UHGV virus genome: UHGV-0176440
Length of the DNA stretch: 11,560 nt
From: a virus
Strand: one strand, 5' to 3'
Made by a program: the position numbers and the translations under genes. The first letter of the stretch is position 1. Every line of letters begins with the position of its first letter. The notes beneath the pieces were generated by a model. It saw only the letters and a list, made by a program, of their open reading frames with translations, did not search any database and was not told where the DNA came from. Shown here one piece after another: positions 1 to 7,952 of the stretch.

Positions 1-121
1 GCTTAACGACAACTTCTGCGCCATCCACTTTGCTTGCACCCTCAGCAACTGCGCGTGCCATCGTTTCAATATGTCCGTACATGGAATAATAAAGCACTAG
101 TATTCTTGCCTTAACACTCAT
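1..121 (-). CDS. wrbA: NAD(P)H:quinone oxidoreductase WrbA, N-terminal fragment (gene continues beyond window start)
   Basis: Reverse complement of 1-121 reads from ATG (119-121) as [40 protein letters not shown], the flavodoxin-like WrbA N-terminus ([33 protein letters not shown] as I recall it from E. coli WrbA). GC is clearly higher here than in the rest of the window. Confidence 0.85.
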
Positions 122-172: not shown

Positions 173-1816
173 ATGAAGCTGCTAGTGACATACATCAGGT
201 GGAGTACTAAAGAGCAAGACTCAGGAGACTCCTTAAGACGGCAAACAAACCTCATTGATGCTTTCTACTCTAAGCACAAAAACGATTATTACCTTCTTCC
301 TGCTCACAGATACGTTGATAAGGGTAAATCTGGTTTTCACCAGCAACATAAGGCTCAAGGTTCTGACTTCAGACGTATGTTTGAAAATGTTATGTCTGGG
401 GCTATTCCAGAAGGTTCCCTGATTGTTGTAGAGAACTTTGACCGCTTCAGTAGGGCTGATATCGACACAGCTATAGATGATGTCAGGCAGATACTGAGGA
501 AAGGAGTCTCTATACTGACTCTGGGAGATGGTGAACTCTACGACAAATCAGCATTAACAGACCCTGTGAAGTTGATTAAGCACATCATCATAGCTGAGAG
601 AGCACATCAGGAATCTCTTGTTAAGCAAAAGCGTATAGCTCAGGTCTGGAACCATAAAACACAGCTTGCAAGAGAACTTAAGAAGCCTATGGGTAAGCAA
701 GCCCCCGGATGGTTAGAGCTATCAGAAGACGGTTCACACTACATCGTTGATGAAGATAAAGCGTCACTGGTGAATATCATCTATGACAAGCGTCTTTCTG
801 GTATGTCGATGTTTGCTATCTGTAAATGGTTAAACGAACAAGGTTACCCGACCATTAATCAGCGTAAGGTCAGAATATCCAAGACTAAGAAACCTGATGG
901 TAACTGGTCAGCATTAAGCGTTAAACACATCCTGACTTCACGAAGTGTATTAGGTTACCTTCCCGCTAAGATTTCTACAGAAGACCGTAAAACAGTGTTA
1001 CGTGAAGAAATTGAAGGGTTCTATCCTCAGATTGTCACAGATTCTAAGTTTTACGCTGTACAGCAACTGTTAGAGGAAACAGGGAAGGGGAAAACATCCA
1101 GCGGTGAACACTGGCTATATGTGAACATACTGAAGGGGCTTATCCGTTGTAAGTGTGGGCTTGTAATGACTCCTACAGGGATACGTAAACCCGTTTATCA
1201 AGGTACTTACCGTTGCAATGGTAATAAGGAGTCCCGTTGTAGCTACGGTACAGTGTCCAGAAAGTTACTTGATACACAGCTTTGCAGTCGTCTGTTTAGC
1301 AAACTATCACAGCTACACGATGAAGCTACCGATACAGCTAAATTAGATGAACTACAAAGAAGATTAAACACCGTTGATAGTGAACTGGAAAAACTCACTG
1401 AGACGCTGATACAGCTACCTAACATCACCCAGATTCAGGAAGCACTACGGGTTAAACAGGAAGAAAAAGATGAACTGATAGTTCAGTTATCACGAGAAAA
1501 GGCGAGGGTAAAATCTGTATCAAGCTTGGATTTAAGCGGTCTTGATATGGAGTCTGTAGAGGGGAGAACTGAAGCCCAGATTATCATTAAGCGTCTGGTG
1601 AAAGAGATTGTTGTTTCTGGTAATGAAAAGCTGGTGGATATATATCTTCACAATGGAAATATGATTCGTGGTTTCCCTCTTGATGGTAAAGATGACCACA
1701 CCTTAACGCTTGAAGAAGCAACCGATGAGATGCAGTCATTAGATGATATGCTTATTTTTGGTGAACCAGTAACAAGGATTTATCCTGCTGGTGATATGGA
1801 AGAGGTGGACGCTTAG
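173..1816 (+). CDS. Large serine recombinase (integrase)
   Basis: 547-aa ORF. N-terminal resolvase-type catalytic motif YIRWSTKEQ, Cys-rich zinc-ribbon segment (CKCG...[13 protein letters not shown]) and coiled-coil C-terminal region, the standard large-serine-recombinase architecture. Confidence 0.92.
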
Positions 1817-2601
1817 TATTTTTTATTAGGGTTCACTGAGTACTTTTTAAGCTTTGAAGCTACTCGACCAGCGTTACTATTAGCATTGGTGACGTTGGTT
1901 TTTTCAGCTTCTGTTAAGTCTGAATAGTCCAGCTTCCAAGCCTTATTACACTTAATCTGAGCATCGAGAATATCATTTCTGATAGCTGGAGCGTAACCGG
2001 ATACATCGCTAATACTCATTAGCTCTTTGCACGATAGCATAGGCGCGTTATTGCGTTCAGTGGTCACGTTACCTGTATTCTTCTTACTGGTAGCACCACC
2101 ATCATTCGTAGTCGCGGCTTTTCCAGTTGCAGCCGAGATATCAGTCTGCCCCACAACAGCTTTGAAGTTGATTTCCTGAAAAGTTAGCTGGATTCTTAGA
2201 CCATTTGAAATACCAACATCTTTAGAGGCTTTAAAACTTGTGATAATGGAATCATCAATTTTAATTCCGTCTTTACAGATGACCGAAATAATTTGTTTCT
2301 GGTCACGCCAGTTTTCCAGAGTGTCAATGAAGTTTTCTACTAATTGGCCCTGACGAGTTAATAATAAGCTCCCTTCATAGCCAACTACAACGACACCACT
2401 AATAGTGATTGTTCTGGGTGCTCTTTGCACATTATCTGTGACGGTTTGCCCTGATTGCATGTTCTGTGTAGTCACCTGCATAGGGCTATCAAATTCCATA
2501 TTTTCAGTTGCTGATAAGGTTAAGAAGGCATCTACATTATCTCTTAAGTGGAAATAGATGCCATCTTTGCCACTGTAGCGGATTTGATTAGAGTAAATCA
2601 T
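1813..2601 (-). CDS. Hypothetical protein (262 aa), immediately downstream of the tape-measure-like gene; possibly a tail-associated protein
   Basis: ORF-track ORF 1813-2622 trimmed to the ATG at 2599-2601, which has an AGGAG SD 8 nt upstream (minus-strand sense ...AAGGAGAATTTAATG). Stop codon overlaps the integrase stop (convergent). No recognisable motif. Confidence 0.6.
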
Positions 2602-2757
2602 TAAATTCTCCTTTGATTTCAAAGGCTTAGTGTATTTTAATCATTTTTAACCAAGCCTTTGATATATAAGTGTTTTCTCTGTTAAGCGTGAGCTACGTGA
2701 AAAATAATTTTTGGTGTGGGTATTAACTTTGCTTTATTCACGTAGAACACCGTTAAA

Positions 2758-4926
2758 TCAATCATCTTCTGGGAATGATGAACTTAATAGCGTAGCTTCT
2801 GCATATTGGTCGTAGATATTACTGCTAAAGGTCATAAAGCTGGTTTCATCTGGTTTAATGGCAACTTCACCACCAAGTGAAACTTTCACAGGCTCCTGAA
2901 TACGCTTACTTAAAGCAGAGATTTCATCCCTCAGACCCTGAATATCTGCACTCGTTAATGATGCATCTTGTTTCATGGTAATTAATTCTGGATGATTGAA
3001 TCTTGCAATATTCATTGTGGCATTGTTAAACAATTCACCCATTGAACTAAAAATTCTACTCCATCCTTCGTTAATCACATTCGGTTTATTAGGGTCACCA
3101 GAATACACAGGATTAAAGTCACTACCCACACCTACCCCAGATGGATGCATATTAGCGTTTTTGACTACTTCCTGATTCATAAAATCCAGTGCTTTCTTCA
3201 ATGCATATAAACCAAGGGTGACACCTCTGATTTGTGGAATCATTGAAGCTAATGCTAACGCTGTTTCATAACCGTCATCAGCATAACCAATTGCAAGAGC
3301 ACTACCTACACCACCAGCTACACCTTTCAGTTTACCAGTAGCTACCTGACCAGCCACCTGATTAGCTCTTGTACCTAACGTTGTGATTGCTCTTGTCAGG
3401 TTCATAACCCCTGTAGTAGCACTGAATAGTGTCTTTGCAGATAACGCTATAGCAAGACCTTTGACGAAGTTGATAAAACCATCACCGACTTCATCAAGTA
3501 GTTTTCGTTTAGTGTCATCAAGGCTGTAATAGAACTTCTTAGTCTGTAAAATCCAGCCTTCAATGGTGTTATTGAATACGCGAATATCATCTACACCAGC
3601 TTTAAGCATGTCGATAAGTCCACCGATAGCATCACCAGCGATAGAAGAACTCATCCCCATTTCACTAAGCAGGTTACTCAGGCTGGATAAGAAGCCGTTT
3701 AACTCATCCTGTGAACCTGAGAAGATTTTCACCATCGTATCATCCCAGTTGTTAGCCAGTTTCCCTAAAGCTGTCTGAGTGCTCTTAGCGACTTCAGCCC
3801 AGCCACCCGCTTTATCAATCATCAAGCCCATCTGTTTAGCGACTTTAGGGAGAGTATCACTACTTAAAATCTTCCCGTTTTTCATGGCTGCATCAAGCTC
3901 TGTAGCAGTCATACCCAATGCTTCAGCGAATAGCTTAAATGCACCAGCCATACGGTCACCTAACTGCCCACGTAATTCTTCAGCCTGAATCTTGCCCTTA
4001 GAAGCCATCTGCTCAAATGCTTTCAAAATGCCGTTTAGCTCGTCGTTAGAAAGCCCCATTAAGCGACTCATAGCCGTTGCATTACCAAATAGTTCCTGTG
4101 TCTGTTCCTGTGACATAGAACCCTGAGCACCTGCTGCAAACTTAGCGTAGCTTGATAGCCCTTCAGAGATATTAAGACCTGTCTTGTCAGCCAGTCCCCT
4201 GATAAATGTTTCAGCTTCAGATGCTTTATCACCAAGTACAAACTTAGCGGCTCTCTGTGCGGAATCTCGTTTAAGACCTGCATTCATAATGGCCTTGTAA
4301 GCGTTAAGAGCACCCATCACAGAGTAAAATGCACCAGATAATTTAATTGCATTGCTTGCAAGATTATTAAATGCGTCGCTTGTATTATTAATGCTGGTGG
4401 TCTTTGTCTGTGACCTGAGTTTATTCAACGTTTCACGAAGAGATTGATTTAATTTTGCAAGTTCAGCGTTAAACTTTTCACTTCCAATATTACCAGCCTT
4501 GCCGCTTAAACTGTAATATTGTGCTTTAAACATTTTAGCCATCAGCGGATTAATATCACCAAGCTTAGACATATTCACACTATGCGCTGCTGTGATTGCT
4601 CTGTTGCCGCTAATTCGTGGCTGTCTCGGTTGTTTTGGAGGATTAACAGTGTCATTAAATCTGGTGGTAAACTGGAAAACTTTTGTGCTTCGTGCTCTAG
4701 CTTCCAGACGGTCAAAGGTCTTATTAATTTTTCCTTCCATTGACTTTAAAGAACTTGTCAGATTGCTGTCAAATTTCTTGGTATCGACCTTAAACGCCCT
4801 ATTCAAATTACGTTCAATTCTTTGTGCTGATTGCAAAGCTGCCTTTTCAACTCTTTGCAAGCCCTTAACAACGTTCTCGCTGAAGCCTAGCTCAACGATA
4901 AAACTATCAACTGTGAATTTGCTCAT
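2758..4926 (-). CDS. Phage tail tape-measure-like protein (722 aa)
   Basis: Long low-complexity helical protein rich in A/L/K/G/S. Central segment SNDELNGILKAFEQMASKGKIQAEELRGQLGDRMAGAFKLFAEALGMTATELDAAMKNGKILSSDTLPKVAKQMG resembles the conserved tape-measure domain; Gly-rich hydrophobic C-terminal stretch. SD GAGGTG upstream of ATG. Confidence 0.7.
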   Translation of the reverse strand: MSKFTVDSFIVELGFSENVVKGLQRVEKAALQSAQRIERNLNRAFKVDTKKFDSNLTSSLKSMEGKINKTFDRLEARARSTKVFQFTTRFNDTVNPPKQPRQPRISGNRAITAAHSVNMSKLGDINPLMAKMFKAQYYSLSGKAGNIGSEKFNAELAKLNQSLRETLNKLRSQTKTTSINNTSDAFNNLASNAIKLSGAFYSVMGALNAYKAIMNAGLKRDSAQRAAKFVLGDKASEAETFIRGLADKTGLNISEGLSSYAKFAAGAQGSMSQEQTQELFGNATAMSRLMGLSNDELNGILKAFEQMASKGKIQAEELRGQLGDRMAGAFKLFAEALGMTATELDAAMKNGKILSSDTLPKVAKQMGLMIDKAGGWAEVAKSTQTALGKLANNWDDTMVKIFSGSQDELNGFLSSLSNLLSEMGMSSSIAGDAIGGLIDMLKAGVDDIRVFNNTIEGWILQTKKFYYSLDDTKRKLLDEVGDGFINFVKGLAIALSAKTLFSATTGVMNLTRAITTLGTRANQVAGQVATGKLKGVAGGVGSALAIGYADDGYETALALASMIPQIRGVTLGLYALKKALDFMNQEVVKNANMHPSGVGVGSDFNPVYSGDPNKPNVINEGWSRIFSSMGELFNNATMNIARFNHPELITMKQDASLTSADIQGLRDEISALSKRIQEPVKVSLGGEVAIKPDETSFMTFSSNIYDQYAEATLLSSSFPEDD

Positions 4927-4956: not shown

Positions 4957-4999
4957 ACAAAAAAGGGAGAGCTACCGATGTCACTCGATAATCTCTCCC
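4957..4999 (-). terminator. Rho-independent terminator/attenuator (minus strand) between the 67-aa gene and the tape-measure-like gene
   Basis: Minus-strand RNA: GGGAGAG...CTCTCCC stem (plus strand 4965-4971 / 4993-4999) with inner CGA/TCG pairing, followed by UUUUUUGUAU (plus-strand A-run 4957-4964). Confidence 0.5.
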
Positions 5000-5046
5000 C
5001 GTGTTATAGATTCGATAGAACCTATCTCATACACCCAACCAATTCT

Positions 5047-5250
5047 TTATCTAATCAGATAATAATTACCATCTTCACCGACAATCTGACAATCACTTGG
5101 TAATTTATCAAGACACCATTTAGCGATTCTTCTGATTCTGTTATTTTGCTTAGAGGTGGATGATTTGATTCGTTTTGGTTTGTTGGGTTGTTCTTTCAAT
5201 CTCTCGCTAATTGCTTTAATAAGTTCATAGCGTTCCGTTAAATCAATCAT
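5047..5250 (-). CDS. Hypothetical small basic protein (67 aa)
   Basis: ORF with a very strong SD (AAAGGAGGTG, 6-nt spacer) before ATG; 25 nt downstream of the 236-aa gene stop. Confidence 0.6.
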   Translation of the reverse strand: MIDLTERYELIKAISERLKEQPNKPKRIKSSTSKQNNRIRRIAKWCLDKLPSDCQIVGEDGNYYLIR

Positions 5251-5275
5251 TCACCACCTCCTTTTTAATTCATAG

Positions 5276-5986
5276 TCAAAGTGCCTTTGCATACTTCTGA
5301 GAAATCTTCGTAAGCTGCTCAATATCAGCCTGCATAGCAACCTTCTTCTGCGTTTCATATGCAGAAATAAGGTCTTTCATAGCCTGAAGCTCTCTTGAGA
5401 GATACAACTTAGCACTATCAAGCTGCTTGTTACGTGATGCCAAGATGTTCTGTCTAGCAAGTTCACAGAGTTCTTCATCGCTCTTATCGGTCATGTAAAT
5501 AAACTGACCAGCACCTCTTGAAGCTTTAACCATCTTCACAATTCGATATCCATCAGGAAGACTACTAATCGCGGCTGGGATGTTTTCTGGATAAATACCA
5601 AAACCGTCATTGTCTTCGTATTGGTAATAGACAAATGGTTTCTGTGACAATTCATCCTGAATCTCAAATTCTGACGGCTCAATAGCTGATTGCATCAAGG
5701 TAACTTTGCTGTAAGCGTCATCTAATCTAAGGCGCTGTTCTTTTAACTGTGGGTAATATTCACGCTCAAGATTAAATAGTGCTTCAGTTTTGCATACATC
5801 AGGCATCTCTTGAGATTCAGGAGCCACAAAGGTAACTTGCTTTGGTGACATCTTTAGCGATTGCTCAAGCTCAATACGCTTGTCATGCTCTTGACGCTGG
5901 ATAGTGATAGCTGGATGCTCAGTCTGTGGTGACCAGTCGCCAAAACTATCAATCTTTTTACCGTTAATATATAAATCGTTTGTCAT
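5276..5986 (-). CDS. Hypothetical protein (236 aa) with helical/coiled-coil C-terminus
   Basis: ORF with SD AGAGGAAA upstream of ATG; no recognisable catalytic motif. Confidence 0.65.
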   Translation of the reverse strand: MTNDLYINGKKIDSFGDWSPQTEHPAITIQRQEHDKRIELEQSLKMSPKQVTFVAPESQEMPDVCKTEALFNLEREYYPQLKEQRLRLDDAYSKVTLMQSAIEPSEFEIQDELSQKPFVYYQYEDNDGFGIYPENIPAAISSLPDGYRIVKMVKASRGAGQFIYMTDKSDEELCELARQNILASRNKQLDSAKLYLSRELQAMKDLISAYETQKKVAMQADIEQLTKISQKYAKAL

Positions 5987-6220: not shown

Positions 6221-6250
6221 AAAGAAAACGCCCTAATCATGAGTTAGGGC
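6221..6250 (-). terminator. Rho-independent terminator (minus strand) downstream of the 107-aa/micro-ORF unit
   Basis: Minus-strand RNA GCCCUAA-cucauga-UUAGGGC followed by GUUUUCUUU (plus-strand stem 6230-6236 / 6244-6250, A-rich 6221-6229). A weaker hairpin plus U-tract lies at about 6393-6412. Confidence 0.55.
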
Positions 6251-6474
6251 AAAGCTGTAAGGGTTCAATAATGAATGATTAAGCACTTTTTGATATATAG
6301 CCTATCTAGTGGGCTAAATAGGCCATGTAGCGAAAAGCATTGCACCTTTCAGAATAACTATCCCTAGATGTAGATGGAATTGTTGAAAGAAATAAGAGAG
6401 AATTGCTCTCCCATACTTAAAATTATGGCATATTTAAGGTTATTTGTCAACAGCTTTTTAACAGATTGGTAACA

Positions 6475-6552
6475 TTAATTCTTATTTACCGTGTTACCTA
6501 CCCAGCAACCAACAAATAAACCCAAAGCTGTCCAAGCAATTATTAAGCCCAT
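6475..6552 (-). CDS. Unannotated micro-ORF, 25-aa hydrophobic peptide (MGLIIAWTALGLFVGCWVGNTVNKN)
   Basis: ATG overlaps the stop of the upstream 107-aa ORF in a TAATG arrangement (translational coupling). Single predicted transmembrane-like helix. Not in the ORF track because of length. Confidence 0.35.
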   Translation of the reverse strand: MGLIIAWTALGLFVGCWVGNTVNKN

Positions 6553-6875
6553 TAATGCACCACCTTCGAATCCGTCACCAAAATATTGTCAGCGTACAAA
6601 ATTGCTATAGCTGCCTTGAGATATCTTTCAGGGCTAACGCTGTATCGGTTCGTTTGCTCGATAACCAATCTTTTCATGTTGCTGTCTTTAATTGGTAGCA
6701 TCATTCGAGGCTCGTTAAACTCCACCGACTGAATAAAATCTTCAATTGCTTCTGAGTTTTCAGCCATGAGCTTTAGCAGCTTGTCAAAGTCAATGCTAAC
6801 ACCTACATCAGTGAAAGCCTGAATCATCATAGCGGTGTCGCTATCAACGAAAATTTGCATTGGGTGATTATTCAT
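6552..6875 (-). CDS. Hypothetical acidic protein (107 aa)
   Basis: ORF with SD AGAGGAAT 8 nt upstream of ATG; no recognisable motif. Confidence 0.6.
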   Translation of the reverse strand: MNNHPMQIFVDSDTAMMIQAFTDVGVSIDFDKLLKLMAENSEAIEDFIQSVEFNEPRMMLPIKDSNMKRLVIEQTNRYSVSPERYLKAAIAILYADNILVTDSKVVH

Positions 6876-7012
6876 TTTTAAATTCCTCTAAAACACATCT
6901 TAAATCTGCCAAAATAGCCATTCTGAGGCCAGTAACCATGCGGGTTACAGAGGGAGTGAGACACCTTAGTAATAGGGTAGCTCATCTTTGAGTCTCACTC
7001 ATTCTCACAGGC

Positions 7013-7399
7013 TTACACAGACGCTTTAATCTTGTAGTATTGACTGCGTGATAAGCCGTATTTCTCAGAAATATAACTTTGTGATTGTCCTTTGGTGATT
7101 GCATCAATGATTAAATCTTTATTGTATCTGTTGCCATTGGTTTTGTGCTTGTCACCACTTTTAATAGAGTTGAAATTCTCAATTAATTTAATGGCGTCTT
7201 TAAGGTCGTCTTCGTAAGCATAATCAAAACCCCTGATAAACTCGAAATCACCATTATCTTTTTGTGCTTCAGTCCAGATATCAAATCTTGAGGCTAATTG
7301 CTGGTGGGTAAACTTGGGTTTATTGGTTTCTGTTATGTCTTTCCAGACTCTACCGTCAAATCTTACCAAATGGTCACGATGTTTATAAAAGTCATACAT
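7013..7399 (-). CDS. Putative DNA-binding protein with C-terminal helix-turn-helix (128 aa)
   Basis: ORF-track ORF 7013-7432 starts at TTG; the internal ATG at 7397-7399 has AGGAGG just upstream and overlaps the HNH gene stop (TAATG). C-terminal segment NRYNKDLIIDAITKGQSQSYISEKYGLSRSQYYKIK looks like a resolvase/terminase-small-subunit-type HTH. Confidence 0.6.
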   Translation of the reverse strand: MYDFYKHRDHLVRFDGRVWKDITETNKPKFTHQQLASRFDIWTEAQKDNGDFEFIRGFDYAYEDDLKDAIKLIENFNSIKSGDKHKTNGNRYNKDLIIDAITKGQSQSYISEKYGLSRSQYYKIKASV

Positions 7400-7671
7400 T
7401 AAACCTCCTGTAGTAAATTGTTTGGGTGGCAATTTCTTTTATTACCATCCCTGAAGATAATTTTTTTAGTTGCCTGAACTTCATGATGCAAAAACCAGAT
7501 GACATATTTCACATAATAATCACGAGTGCCATAACGAATCATTGGATTACCGTAAGCGTCATCTCTTGTCTTAACCTCTCCACCATCAATCCATTCAAGC
7601 ATTCCTGTTTCGTAATTAATCATGAAGTAAGTTGCAAAGAACCGTTTAATATCATCTCGCCATTGCTTCAT
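7399..7671 (-). CDS. HNH endonuclease (90 aa)
   Basis: Motif VIWFLHHEVQATKKIIFRDGNKRNCHPNNLLQ (paired His, then DGNK..N..NL) typical of small phage-associated HNH nucleases. SD AAGAGG upstream of ATG. Confidence 0.7.
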   Translation of the reverse strand: MKQWRDDIKRFFATYFMINYETGMLEWIDGGEVKTRDDAYGNPMIRYGTRDYYVKYVIWFLHHEVQATKKIIFRDGNKRNCHPNNLLQEV

Positions 7672-7673
7672 AA

Positions 7674-7952
7674 TCAGACCTCTTGAGATAACTTGTGAAT
7701 CTTGATGCTCAATAGTCGGGCAATATCAATTTTAAAGCTGTTAAGTGCCTTCAAAGTATCTAAAGCGTCCGTAGTAATTCGGATGTGCTTACGACCTTTA
7801 GAGACTGGATATTTAAGTAAATCCGACTCAGTGACTTCTTTAGCAATTGCAAGCTGCATAACAGTCTGATGAGGCAAGTTAGTTGCTCGTTTAATTCTGT
7901 TAAGCTCGTTAAAAGCTTCCTCTGAAATACGGGTTAATGTGTGTTTATTCAT
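7674..7952 (-). CDS. Putative ribbon-helix-helix DNA-binding protein, possibly tandem RHH (92 aa)
   Basis: Two beta-strand-then-two-helix patterns (HTLTRISEEAFNELNRIKRATNLPHQTVMQLAIAK and KHIRITTDALDTLKALNSFKIDIARLL). ATG directly follows the TAA of the upstream gene; SD AGAGGAA. Confidence 0.55.
   Translation of the reverse strand: MNKHTLTRISEEAFNELNRIKRATNLPHQTVMQLAIAKEVTESDLLKYPVSKGRKHIRITTDALDTLKALNSFKIDIARLLSIKIHKLSQEV

Follow-up and report, generated by a model that had tools for sequence, protein, structure and literature searches.

The DNA analyzed here, virus genome UHGV-0176440 (11,560 nucleotides, referred to below as the window), holds one complete integrative island of 11,415 bp in the wrbA gene of Escherichia coli. 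Beside its integrase gene the island carries two tail genes, predicted to encode a tape measure protein (TMP) and a tube initiator (TI), whose counterparts are neighbors in virulent myophages of the Felix O1 type (Felixounavirus). The reading that we favor, with a little better than even confidence, is that this is a satellite of those phages, similar to the PLEs of Vibrio cholerae, and that it would act by building chimeric tails. We hold the descriptive claims with high confidence: the identity and origin of the genes, the island and its family, the constraint on the tail genes, excision, and the presence of an element resembling a phage genome terminus.

Two predicted tail genes related to those of Felix O1-type phages

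The initial annotation of the window had listed a 722-amino-acid (aa) tape-measure-like gene and a 262-aa downstream gene as its only tail-type genes. Both open reading frames (ORFs) were confirmed, at 2758-4926 and 1813-2601 on the minus strand. Searches with TMP profile models bore out the tape-measure call: PF20155 (TMP_3) scored 80.3 bits (cutoff, 41) and TIGR02675 scored 55.3 bits (cutoff, 21.35), with further matches to phrog_4036 (E = 1e-95) and to PDB 9ndy_F, the "Tape measure protein gp017" of phage Bas63 (E = 2.9e-74). On these matches we assign the 722-aa product as a true TMP. The 262-aa protein, in which no motif had been recognized, did contain one, matching PF21821 (Dit_like) with 73.3 bits (cutoff, 24.2). 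It also matched phrog_3721 (E = 1e-130) and PDB 9ndy_A, the "Tube initiator protein gp018" of Bas63 (E = 1.2e-115), and we assign it, again by homology, as a myophage TI with a Dit-like domain, the protein from which the tail tube starts on the baseplate hub. For both proteins the similarity far exceeds what chance would give. Its gene starts at an ATG at 2601 preceded by AAGGAG; the ORF list gave 269 aa from an upstream TTG, and both PGAP (on a relative) and the metagenome gene caller gave 262 aa.

The statement that these are the only tail-type genes also held. No other ORF matched a structural family in Pfam or PHROGs, and there was no match to a capsid, portal, terminase, sheath, tube, hub, or fiber protein. 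When the other island protein families were compared by hhalign with phage chaperones, spacer, hub, spike, and tube, probabilities were at most 1.6%, and a tblastn search of all island proteins against a whole phage genome returned only the TMP and TI.

A megablast search of 50,697 phage records (INPHARED) gave 231 records at 90 to 96% nucleotide identity, mostly of the Felixounavirus type from E. coli and Salmonella, and the top matches fell in the two tail genes. Other matches, including those to Stx-converting phages, are probably due to the wrbA flanks. Our reference phage, vB_EcoM_P54 (P54; PV390658.1, our L002 to L004), is placed by the GenBank taxonomy in Straboviridae/Tequatrovirus, but its 88-kb genome and tail-gene layout are those of a Felixounavirus. 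In that layout, two chaperone genes are followed by a 742-aa TMP gene, directly by a 265-aa TI gene, and then by the spacer, hub, and spike genes.

In Bas63, gp17 is the TMP and gp18 is the TI (PMC12609058; PDB 9ndy). The Bas63 TI is a hexamer with a tube-like fold that adapts the threefold hub to the sixfold tube; its C-terminal extension of ~100 residues passes through the baseplate beside the spacer protein, and the last 25 residues of the TMP lie on the puncture apparatus and hub (PMC12609058). By homology, the island TMP and TI correspond to these adjacent Bas63/Felix O1 genes, gp17 and gp18, and they lie in the same order. Unlike the phage genes, the island pair stands alone beside an integrase gene. 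No chaperone pair lies upstream of the island TMP gene, where unrelated 236-aa and 67-aa genes are found instead.

Conserved and island-specific parts of the two proteins

The island TI is a composite. It is 77% identical to the phage protein overall but ~99% identical over residues 6 to 178. The nucleotide identity of this core is 94 to 96% to many phages and 96 to 100% to the best phage in each 90-nt window, the best-matching phage changes along the core, and identity drops to ~43% after codon 180, placing the break near residues 178 to 182. Synonymous divergence (dS) between island and phage cores was 0.20 to 0.44; for the two phage pairs that we compared it was 0.31 to 0.39. The core therefore belongs to the phage gene pool, implying recent exchange. 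Beyond the break, the last ~80 residues are encoded by sequence that could not be aligned at the nucleotide level with any of the 27 phages and that is common only to islands. The phage-type C-terminal extension is not present in the island TI; the replacement retains only a terminal SVNPNK motif and two Cys residues in common with the phage.

The TMP shows a different pattern. Its first ~45 residues and its C-terminal tip (LLSSSFPEDD; consensus LLSSS[FY]PE) are conserved with the phage protein, as is the TMP_3 core; the rest, including a hydrophobic Gly/Ala-rich segment in the variable body, is only ~33% identical. No closer TMP was found among the 50,697 phage records, in which the best was also ~33% identical. 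At the N terminus, dS was saturated, nonsynonymous divergence (dN) was low, and the best phage nucleotide identity was at most 80%. This part has therefore been kept by selection rather than acquired by recent transfer, and we rejected recent phage-island exchange as its source.

Considered together, the conserved parts of the two proteins appear to be exactly those that touch other phage parts in the Bas63 structure.

At 722 aa, the TMP of the window is 20 residues shorter than the 742-aa phage protein, and other island types are 682 to 693 aa long. At ~1.5 Å per residue, differences of 20 to 60 residues amount to 3 to 9 nm; the disc rise in Bas63 is 38 Å. Any effect of the TMP on tail length would be minor.

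The junctions around the pair also differ from those in the phage. A spacer with hairpins separates the two island genes (Table 1). A 17-nt repeat, at 2750-2766 and 5235-5251, places a copy of the first codons of the 67-aa gene right after the TMP stop codon, which suggests that the spacer arose by duplication. At the other end, the TI stop codon (TTA at 1813-1815, TAA on the minus strand) shares 2 nt with the integrase TAG at 1814-1816, as initially annotated, leaving no intergenic space and no terminator between the genes. In sister islands, there is either a gap of 14 nt or an overlap of 4 nt between the TI and integrase genes.

Boundaries, distribution, and excision of the island

Window positions 1-114 and ~11530-11560 are E. 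coli wrbA, with thousands of matching E. coli records. Against an empty site (L044), a 7-nt core, AAAGCAC, was mapped at 91-97 (attL) and 11506-11512 (attR), which gives the island its length of 11,415 bp; it is thus the small element that had been supposed. The insertion point is at wrbA codons 5 to 7. The left end of the island brings a new ATG and N terminus, so the wrbA reading frame survives integration; in a related island (L001), the wrbA that PGAP annotates runs through this junction and is intact at 201 aa. Scans of the window for tRNA genes and Rfam families found nothing.

The TMP-TI region matched 447 of 5,426 complete E. coli genomes, at up to five places per genome, all of them chromosomal. 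Annotated islands in wrbA, in mdtG, and in a DUF72 gene between yecD and yecN have the same gene order, and the integrases at the different sites are distinct large serine integrases, ~35% identical to one another. More islands were found in IMG/VR and in Escherichia albertii, another Escherichia species, and a Citrobacter species. The initial annotation had left it to be seen whether related elements always carry the two-gene pair. They do: the TMP and TI genes adjoin the integrase gene in all 12 islands covering both positions, and both genes are intact in 11 of them.

The TMPs fall into three discrete types of 722 to 725, 682, and 688 to 693 aa, with 89 to 99% identity within types and 41 to 50% between them. 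The TI cores form two main types, and that of L012 is intermediate. Type A alone has close matches in sequenced phages; for type B (the L006 group) the best phage nucleotide identity is 75%, and we rejected the notion that all island TI cores match sequenced phages. Recent phage exchange is thus evident for the lineage of the window but not for all islands. The types of the TMP, TI core, TI extension, 67-aa protein, and integrase are not congruent, and the same wrbA integrase occurs with TMP type 1 (the type of the window) and with type 3. We therefore see in the tail module a constrained cassette that reassorts, and not a remnant.

This bears on the proposal, raised in the initial annotation, that the pair is what is left of a tail module. 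It might be a decaying remnant of a temperate Felix O1-like prophage, or inert tail-gene cargo, as the presence of only two tail genes and a few disrupted copies would suggest: an insertion sequence lies in the TMP gene of one hit (H111), and in Citrobacter sp. ANG330 (L009), which has the same architecture, the TMP ORF stops at 374 aa, ~3 kb before the TI gene, probably because of an insertion. We consider this origin very improbable. The conserved 11-kb architecture and its ends are constant at at least three sites, synteny is constant in the 12 islands, the TMP gene has a dN/dS ratio of 0.13 to 0.30 among islands, as would not be the case for a remnant, the interface regions are conserved, and an excised circle exists. 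Neither a temperate phage of the Felixounavirus type nor a closer phage TMP, moreover, was found in the phage collection.

Evidence of excision came from metagenomes. The predicted attP junction (right end, core, and left end) matched three metagenome contigs exactly; IMG/VR viral contigs gave no match to it. One of these elements (L046; ERZ506742 NODE-633) is an 11,233-bp contig whose ends overlap by 55 nt, which makes it a circle, and no gene of the island set is missing from it. It is a sister island with the same wrbA integrase and TMP type 3. The element therefore excises in nature. In another contig (L047; OOBX01000469.1), of which 6 kb was read, the junction lies on 23,009 bp, about twice the island length, so that it may be a dimer or concatemer.

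A homolog of a phage genome terminus

Outside the tail genes, the island and the phage share a few short segments. The one of most consequence aligns with a genome terminus of the phage, at the boundary of its direct terminal repeat (10211-10373; Table 1), and includes the block ATGTATACCTGCTAAGTACCC at 10296-10316. Every island subfamily keeps this terminus-like element, even those in which the rest of the region differs. A profile built from 12 island copies alone had a single match in the 88-kb phage genome, at 1522-1698 (E = 4.5e-22).

Felixounaviruses package DNA with direct terminal repeats, and the repeat of phage Pr103Blw is 581 bp (PMC8303462). The termini of phage D4 were set with PhageTerm (PMC11737134), and the linear D4 record has 581 identical bases at both ends. 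Its last base maps to P54 position 1636, inside the conserved block, where the phage reads ATGTATATCTGCTT to one side of the terminus and GGTAGCCC to the other and the island reads ATGTATACCTGCTAAGTACCC. By alignment, then, the islands carry a homolog of the region where the genome of the presumed helper is cut, and we regard the element as a candidate mimic of the packaging site.

We treated one further similarity to the phage genome end, an 18/20 match of 8597-8616 to its extreme left end, as chance, since it is not conserved across islands. A second shared segment, the 65 nt at 10087-10151, is 85% identical to P54 45031-45095. Its core, GGTATGGGTRG-N7-AGCYACRTTAAAA, with GGT-rich repeats upstream, occurs in three copies in a phage intergenic region at 44.9 to 46.4 kb and once in window-type islands only (the window, L001, and L011). 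In the window the segment is followed by a hairpin at 10156-10181, and a promoter, an origin, and a small RNA are candidates for what it represents. Finally, a terminator hairpin after the small recombinase gene (11144-11175) is 94% identical to a phage hairpin found at at least two places (P54 1051-1082 and 37755-37789).

Proposed role of the island and alternatives

Features by which satellites are generally recognized are present: an integrase, att sites, and an excised form, together with the lack of most virion and packaging genes and a sequence tie to a helper. In the course of events that we propose, a Felix O1-type phage would infect and the island would excise. The island would then use the capsids, terminase, hub, spike, wedges, tube, sheath, fibers, and tail chaperones of the phage. 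Its own TMP and TI would enter the hub complex in place of the two innermost tail components of the phage, so that island particles would carry chimeric tails. The parts kept phage-like would be docking parts, namely the tube-like core of the TI, the C-terminal tip of the TMP (on the puncture apparatus and hub in Bas63), and the first 45 residues of the TMP, for which our guess at a partner is a phage chaperone or the tube terminator. The body of the TMP and the C-terminal extension of the TI are island specific. The terminus-like element, for its part, would let the phage packaging machinery recognize island DNA. By analogy with PLE11, swapping the tail core could block the TMP or tails of the helper itself while island tails are made, and it could also change DNA delivery. 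The initial annotation had suggested that the element may alter helper tail assembly or length; assembly is the part that we retain, by inference from the Felixounavirus homology and the PLE precedent (PMC12987554), and for length only the minor 20-residue difference remains.

The wider claim, that these islands are a widespread E. coli satellite family of virulent Felix O1-type phages with a chimeric inner tail core, three reassorting TMP types, and mimicry of a terminal-repeat boundary for packaging, we put at even weight for and against.

Two alternatives give the same proteins another purpose. In the first, the island would be a defense island that poisons tails: the TMP and TI would be dominant-negative decoys that yield dead Felix O1-type tails and protect the clone, with packaging unneeded. 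A decoy might well have this design, with phage-like docking surfaces and an altered functional body; blocking tail assembly is a documented defense strategy (Tai, PMC11364771; Rta of PLE11), and three deep TMP types suggest an arms race. PADLOC, however, found no characterized defense system; its two matches, of the TMP to SspC (E = 0.0092) and of the 236-aa protein to the candidate system PDC-S47 (E = 0.0027), were marginal, and defense alone explains neither the conserved homolog of the phage genome terminus nor the spread of an 11-kb element without conjugation genes to several sites and species. We think a purely defensive role plausible but unlikely, and as a component it is compatible with a satellite.

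In the second, a satellite would gain in delivery: a private TMP body would change the route of entry, escape exclusion or resistance in recipients, or link the short island DNA to the tail. Ejection begins with the TMP, which has been proposed as the channel through which DNA enters (discussion in PMC12609058), and it is the TMP body, with its hydrophobic Gly/Ala-rich segment, that varies among three discrete types. The idea is purely inferential, with no host factor or exclusion system implicated by any result, and we rank it slightly below tail poisoning, as doubtful.

Several points weigh against the satellite reading that we favor. The tie to Felixounavirus infection, induction, packaging, and transfer is drawn from sequence. 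A promoter or regulatory region common to island and phage is another possible identity for the terminus-like element; the phage terminus position depends on the PhageTerm results of the depositors, and the other terminal-repeat boundary has no significant island homolog, so that only one of the two is matched. No tail chaperone was found when every other island family was searched with hhalign, unlike in PLEs, and no replication initiator, capsid-size factor, or excision factor was identified in the island. The type B TI cores, at 75%, are distant from any sequenced phage. Lastly, the circular contig does not prove encapsidation.

Other features of the island

Features of the window are collected in Table 1. 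From left to right, the island carries a large serine recombinase gene (plus strand); the TI and TMP genes, the 67-aa and 236-aa genes, and five small genes (all on the minus strand); an ORF-poor region of ~2 kb; and a small serine recombinase gene (plus strand). The integrase is 100% identical in two other wrbA islands (L001 and L046).

Table 1. Features of the window, by position
Position	Strand	Feature	Basis or remark
1..97	-	wrbA downstream of the insertion point (host NAD(P)H:quinone oxidoreductase); attL core at 91-97	wrbA matches; junction compared with L044
98..121	-	Island left end, new start codon and N terminus for wrbA	Translation; replaces MAKVLVLYYS...
173..1816	+	Large serine recombinase, the island integrase, 547 aa	PF07508, PF00239, PF13408; phrog_95 integrase, E = 2e-78
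1813..2067	-	TI, island-specific C-terminal extension, residues ~179-262	~43% nucleotide identity to every phage
2068..2601	-	TI core, residues 1-178, predicted tube-like Dit_like domain	Nearly identical to the Felixounavirus gene
2602..2757	-	TMP-TI spacer, 156 nt, two hairpins (2693-2745, 2620-2661)	In the phage the two genes abut
2758..4926	-	TMP, 722 aa, island type 1	TMP_3, TIGR02675, phrog_4036, 9ndy_F
4959..5000	-	Terminator-like hairpin with T-run, between 67-aa gene and TMP start	See text
5047..5250	-	67-aa island-specific protein, directly upstream of TMP	No family match; in all islands
5276..5986	-	236-aa island-specific protein	PGAP name "transposase," backed by no model
6552..8510	-	Small-gene block: 107 aa; 128/139 aa with weak helix-turn-helix; 90 aa, HNH_3-like; 92 aa; 185 aa	ORF and family searches
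10211..10373	+	Homolog of genome terminus of presumed helper (direct-terminal-repeat boundary), ~170 nt	68% identity over 167 nt to P54 1539-1699
10555..11130	+	Small serine recombinase, resolvase/invertase type, 191 aa	PF00239; synteny
11506..11512	.	attR core AAAGCAC; remaining wrbA and upstream region beyond	Empty-site comparison

Upstream of the TMP gene, the 67-aa protein occurs in two sequence types across islands; by position and size, its gene is a candidate for a role like that of Rta. A hairpin of the same design as the one at 4959-5000 precedes the phage tail-chaperone gene. The 236-aa protein had no significant Pfam, PHROG, or NCBIfam match, and we discarded its "transposase" name for lack of NCBIfam support. 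It has 3,105 homologs, and nearly all of the 120 listed belong to Escherichia or Shigella records. We also considered standalone 11- to 23-kb contigs carrying this protein as possible circles or dimers and rejected the idea, since the three fetched were ordinary chromosomal contexts. On the minus strand, at 6229-6450, two terminator-like hairpins lie between a strong sigma-70-like promoter (TTGACA-17-CATAAT with TG) and the 236-aa gene, an arrangement that suggests a leader needing read-through or antitermination for an operon ending in TMP and TI.

Within the small-gene block, the 90-aa protein (7399-7671) has a weak, truncated HNH_3 match, and its relatives are annotated as HNH endonucleases or AP2-type factors. 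It may resemble CapR, the domesticated homing-endonuclease regulator of PLEs.

No ORF in the ORF-poor region (8511-10554) exceeds 72 aa, and substitutions there show no three-base periodicity. Highly conserved blocks lie at 8755-9150 and at 9532-9731; in the latter, four islands vary at only 3 sites in 150 nt. When the most conserved noncoding block was folded, the z score was about -1.9, with both strands alike. A 95-nt tandem duplication at 9105-9247 is absent from relatives. Sister islands have a helix-turn-helix protein (~305 to 322 aa) and a Dam methylase in place of this region, and since no remnants of those genes were found in it, we rejected its being their relic.

A small serine recombinase gene lies at the right end of every island whose sequence extends that far. 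The module has two forms that are only 30 to 36% identical, and in L011 and L046 the gene is oriented opposite to that in the window. Five islands (L011, L045, L046, L051, and L052) break with the window sequence directly after the conserved ...GCCAAATATC of the terminus-like element. A module swap and an invertible segment are both candidate explanations.

Comparison with known systems

Of the systems described so far, the PLEs of V. cholerae come closest, although the island itself is not a PLE. PLEs use a large serine integrase and depend on the virulent myophage ICP1 as helper. They bring a TMP gene of their own, and genes for a chaperone and a hub protein may or may not accompany it; PLE virions contain the PLE TMP to the exclusion of that of ICP1, and their tails are 10 nm shorter (PMC12987554). 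One of them, PLE11, encodes the 80-aa Rta, which blocks ICP1 tail assembly through its TMP (PMC12987554). Predicted tmp genes have also been reported in PLE-like elements of other vibrios and in some cf-PICIs (PMC12987554). We compared the island with PLEs on the basis of this published description; the other genes of the island had no match to an annotated family.

Like PLEs, the island is a small chromosomal element with a large serine integrase and, by our inference, a virulent myophage helper. It too has its own diverged TMP gene beside a baseplate-core gene (~20% identity to the TMP of the helper in PLEs and ~33% here), a TMP slightly shorter than that of the helper, and discrete types of tail module across the family. 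It differs from PLEs in its host, E. coli; in its helper lineage, Felixounavirus rather than ICP1; and in its size, 11.4 kb rather than ~18 kb. The partner gene in the island encodes a TI and not the hub protein BhuB, no chaperone was detected, and no Rta-like inhibitor was identified. The TI core is nearly identical to the helper gene, in contrast to 41% identity in PLEs. As a satellite that encodes a tail core of its own, the island would be new in its host, its helper lineage, and its combination of genes. We found no description of this E. coli island family in the literature, in a search that most subscription journals lay outside, and an earlier description is possible.

Chimeric tails built with a satellite TMP were first shown experimentally in 2026, for V. 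cholerae PLEs only, and the authors left open why satellites do so and how their TMP is chosen over that of the helper (PMC12987554). An E. coli family with a simpler module, consisting of a TMP and a TI with no detectable chaperone, would make these questions testable in the best genetic system, with the assets of a solved helper structure (Bas63) and of clear boundaries between helper-identical and island-specific segments. To our knowledge, E. coli satellites have so far been tied to temperate helpers. If our reading is true, virulent coliphages would have their first satellite, and the PLE-ICP1 pair would gain a tractable counterpart in E. coli. There would be consequences for phage therapy and biocontrol as well, given the wide use of Felix O1-type phages and the presence of such islands in ~8% of complete E. 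coli genomes.

Other satellites are less similar. The cf-PICIs share with the island that they are satellites outside Vibrio reported to have predicted TMP genes, but they encode their own capsid and packaging module, of which the island has none. PICIs have a tyrosine integrase, alpA, and pri-rep; the island has a serine integrase and no such match in Pfam, PHROG, or NCBIfam, and the same searches gave no match to the psu, delta, sid, and alpha genes of P4-like elements. Tai (PMC11364771) and the Rta of PLE11, compared here by description, are alike in that the target would be helper tail assembly. They are, however, small nonstructural inhibitors, whereas the island proteins are structural homologs of the tail components themselves.

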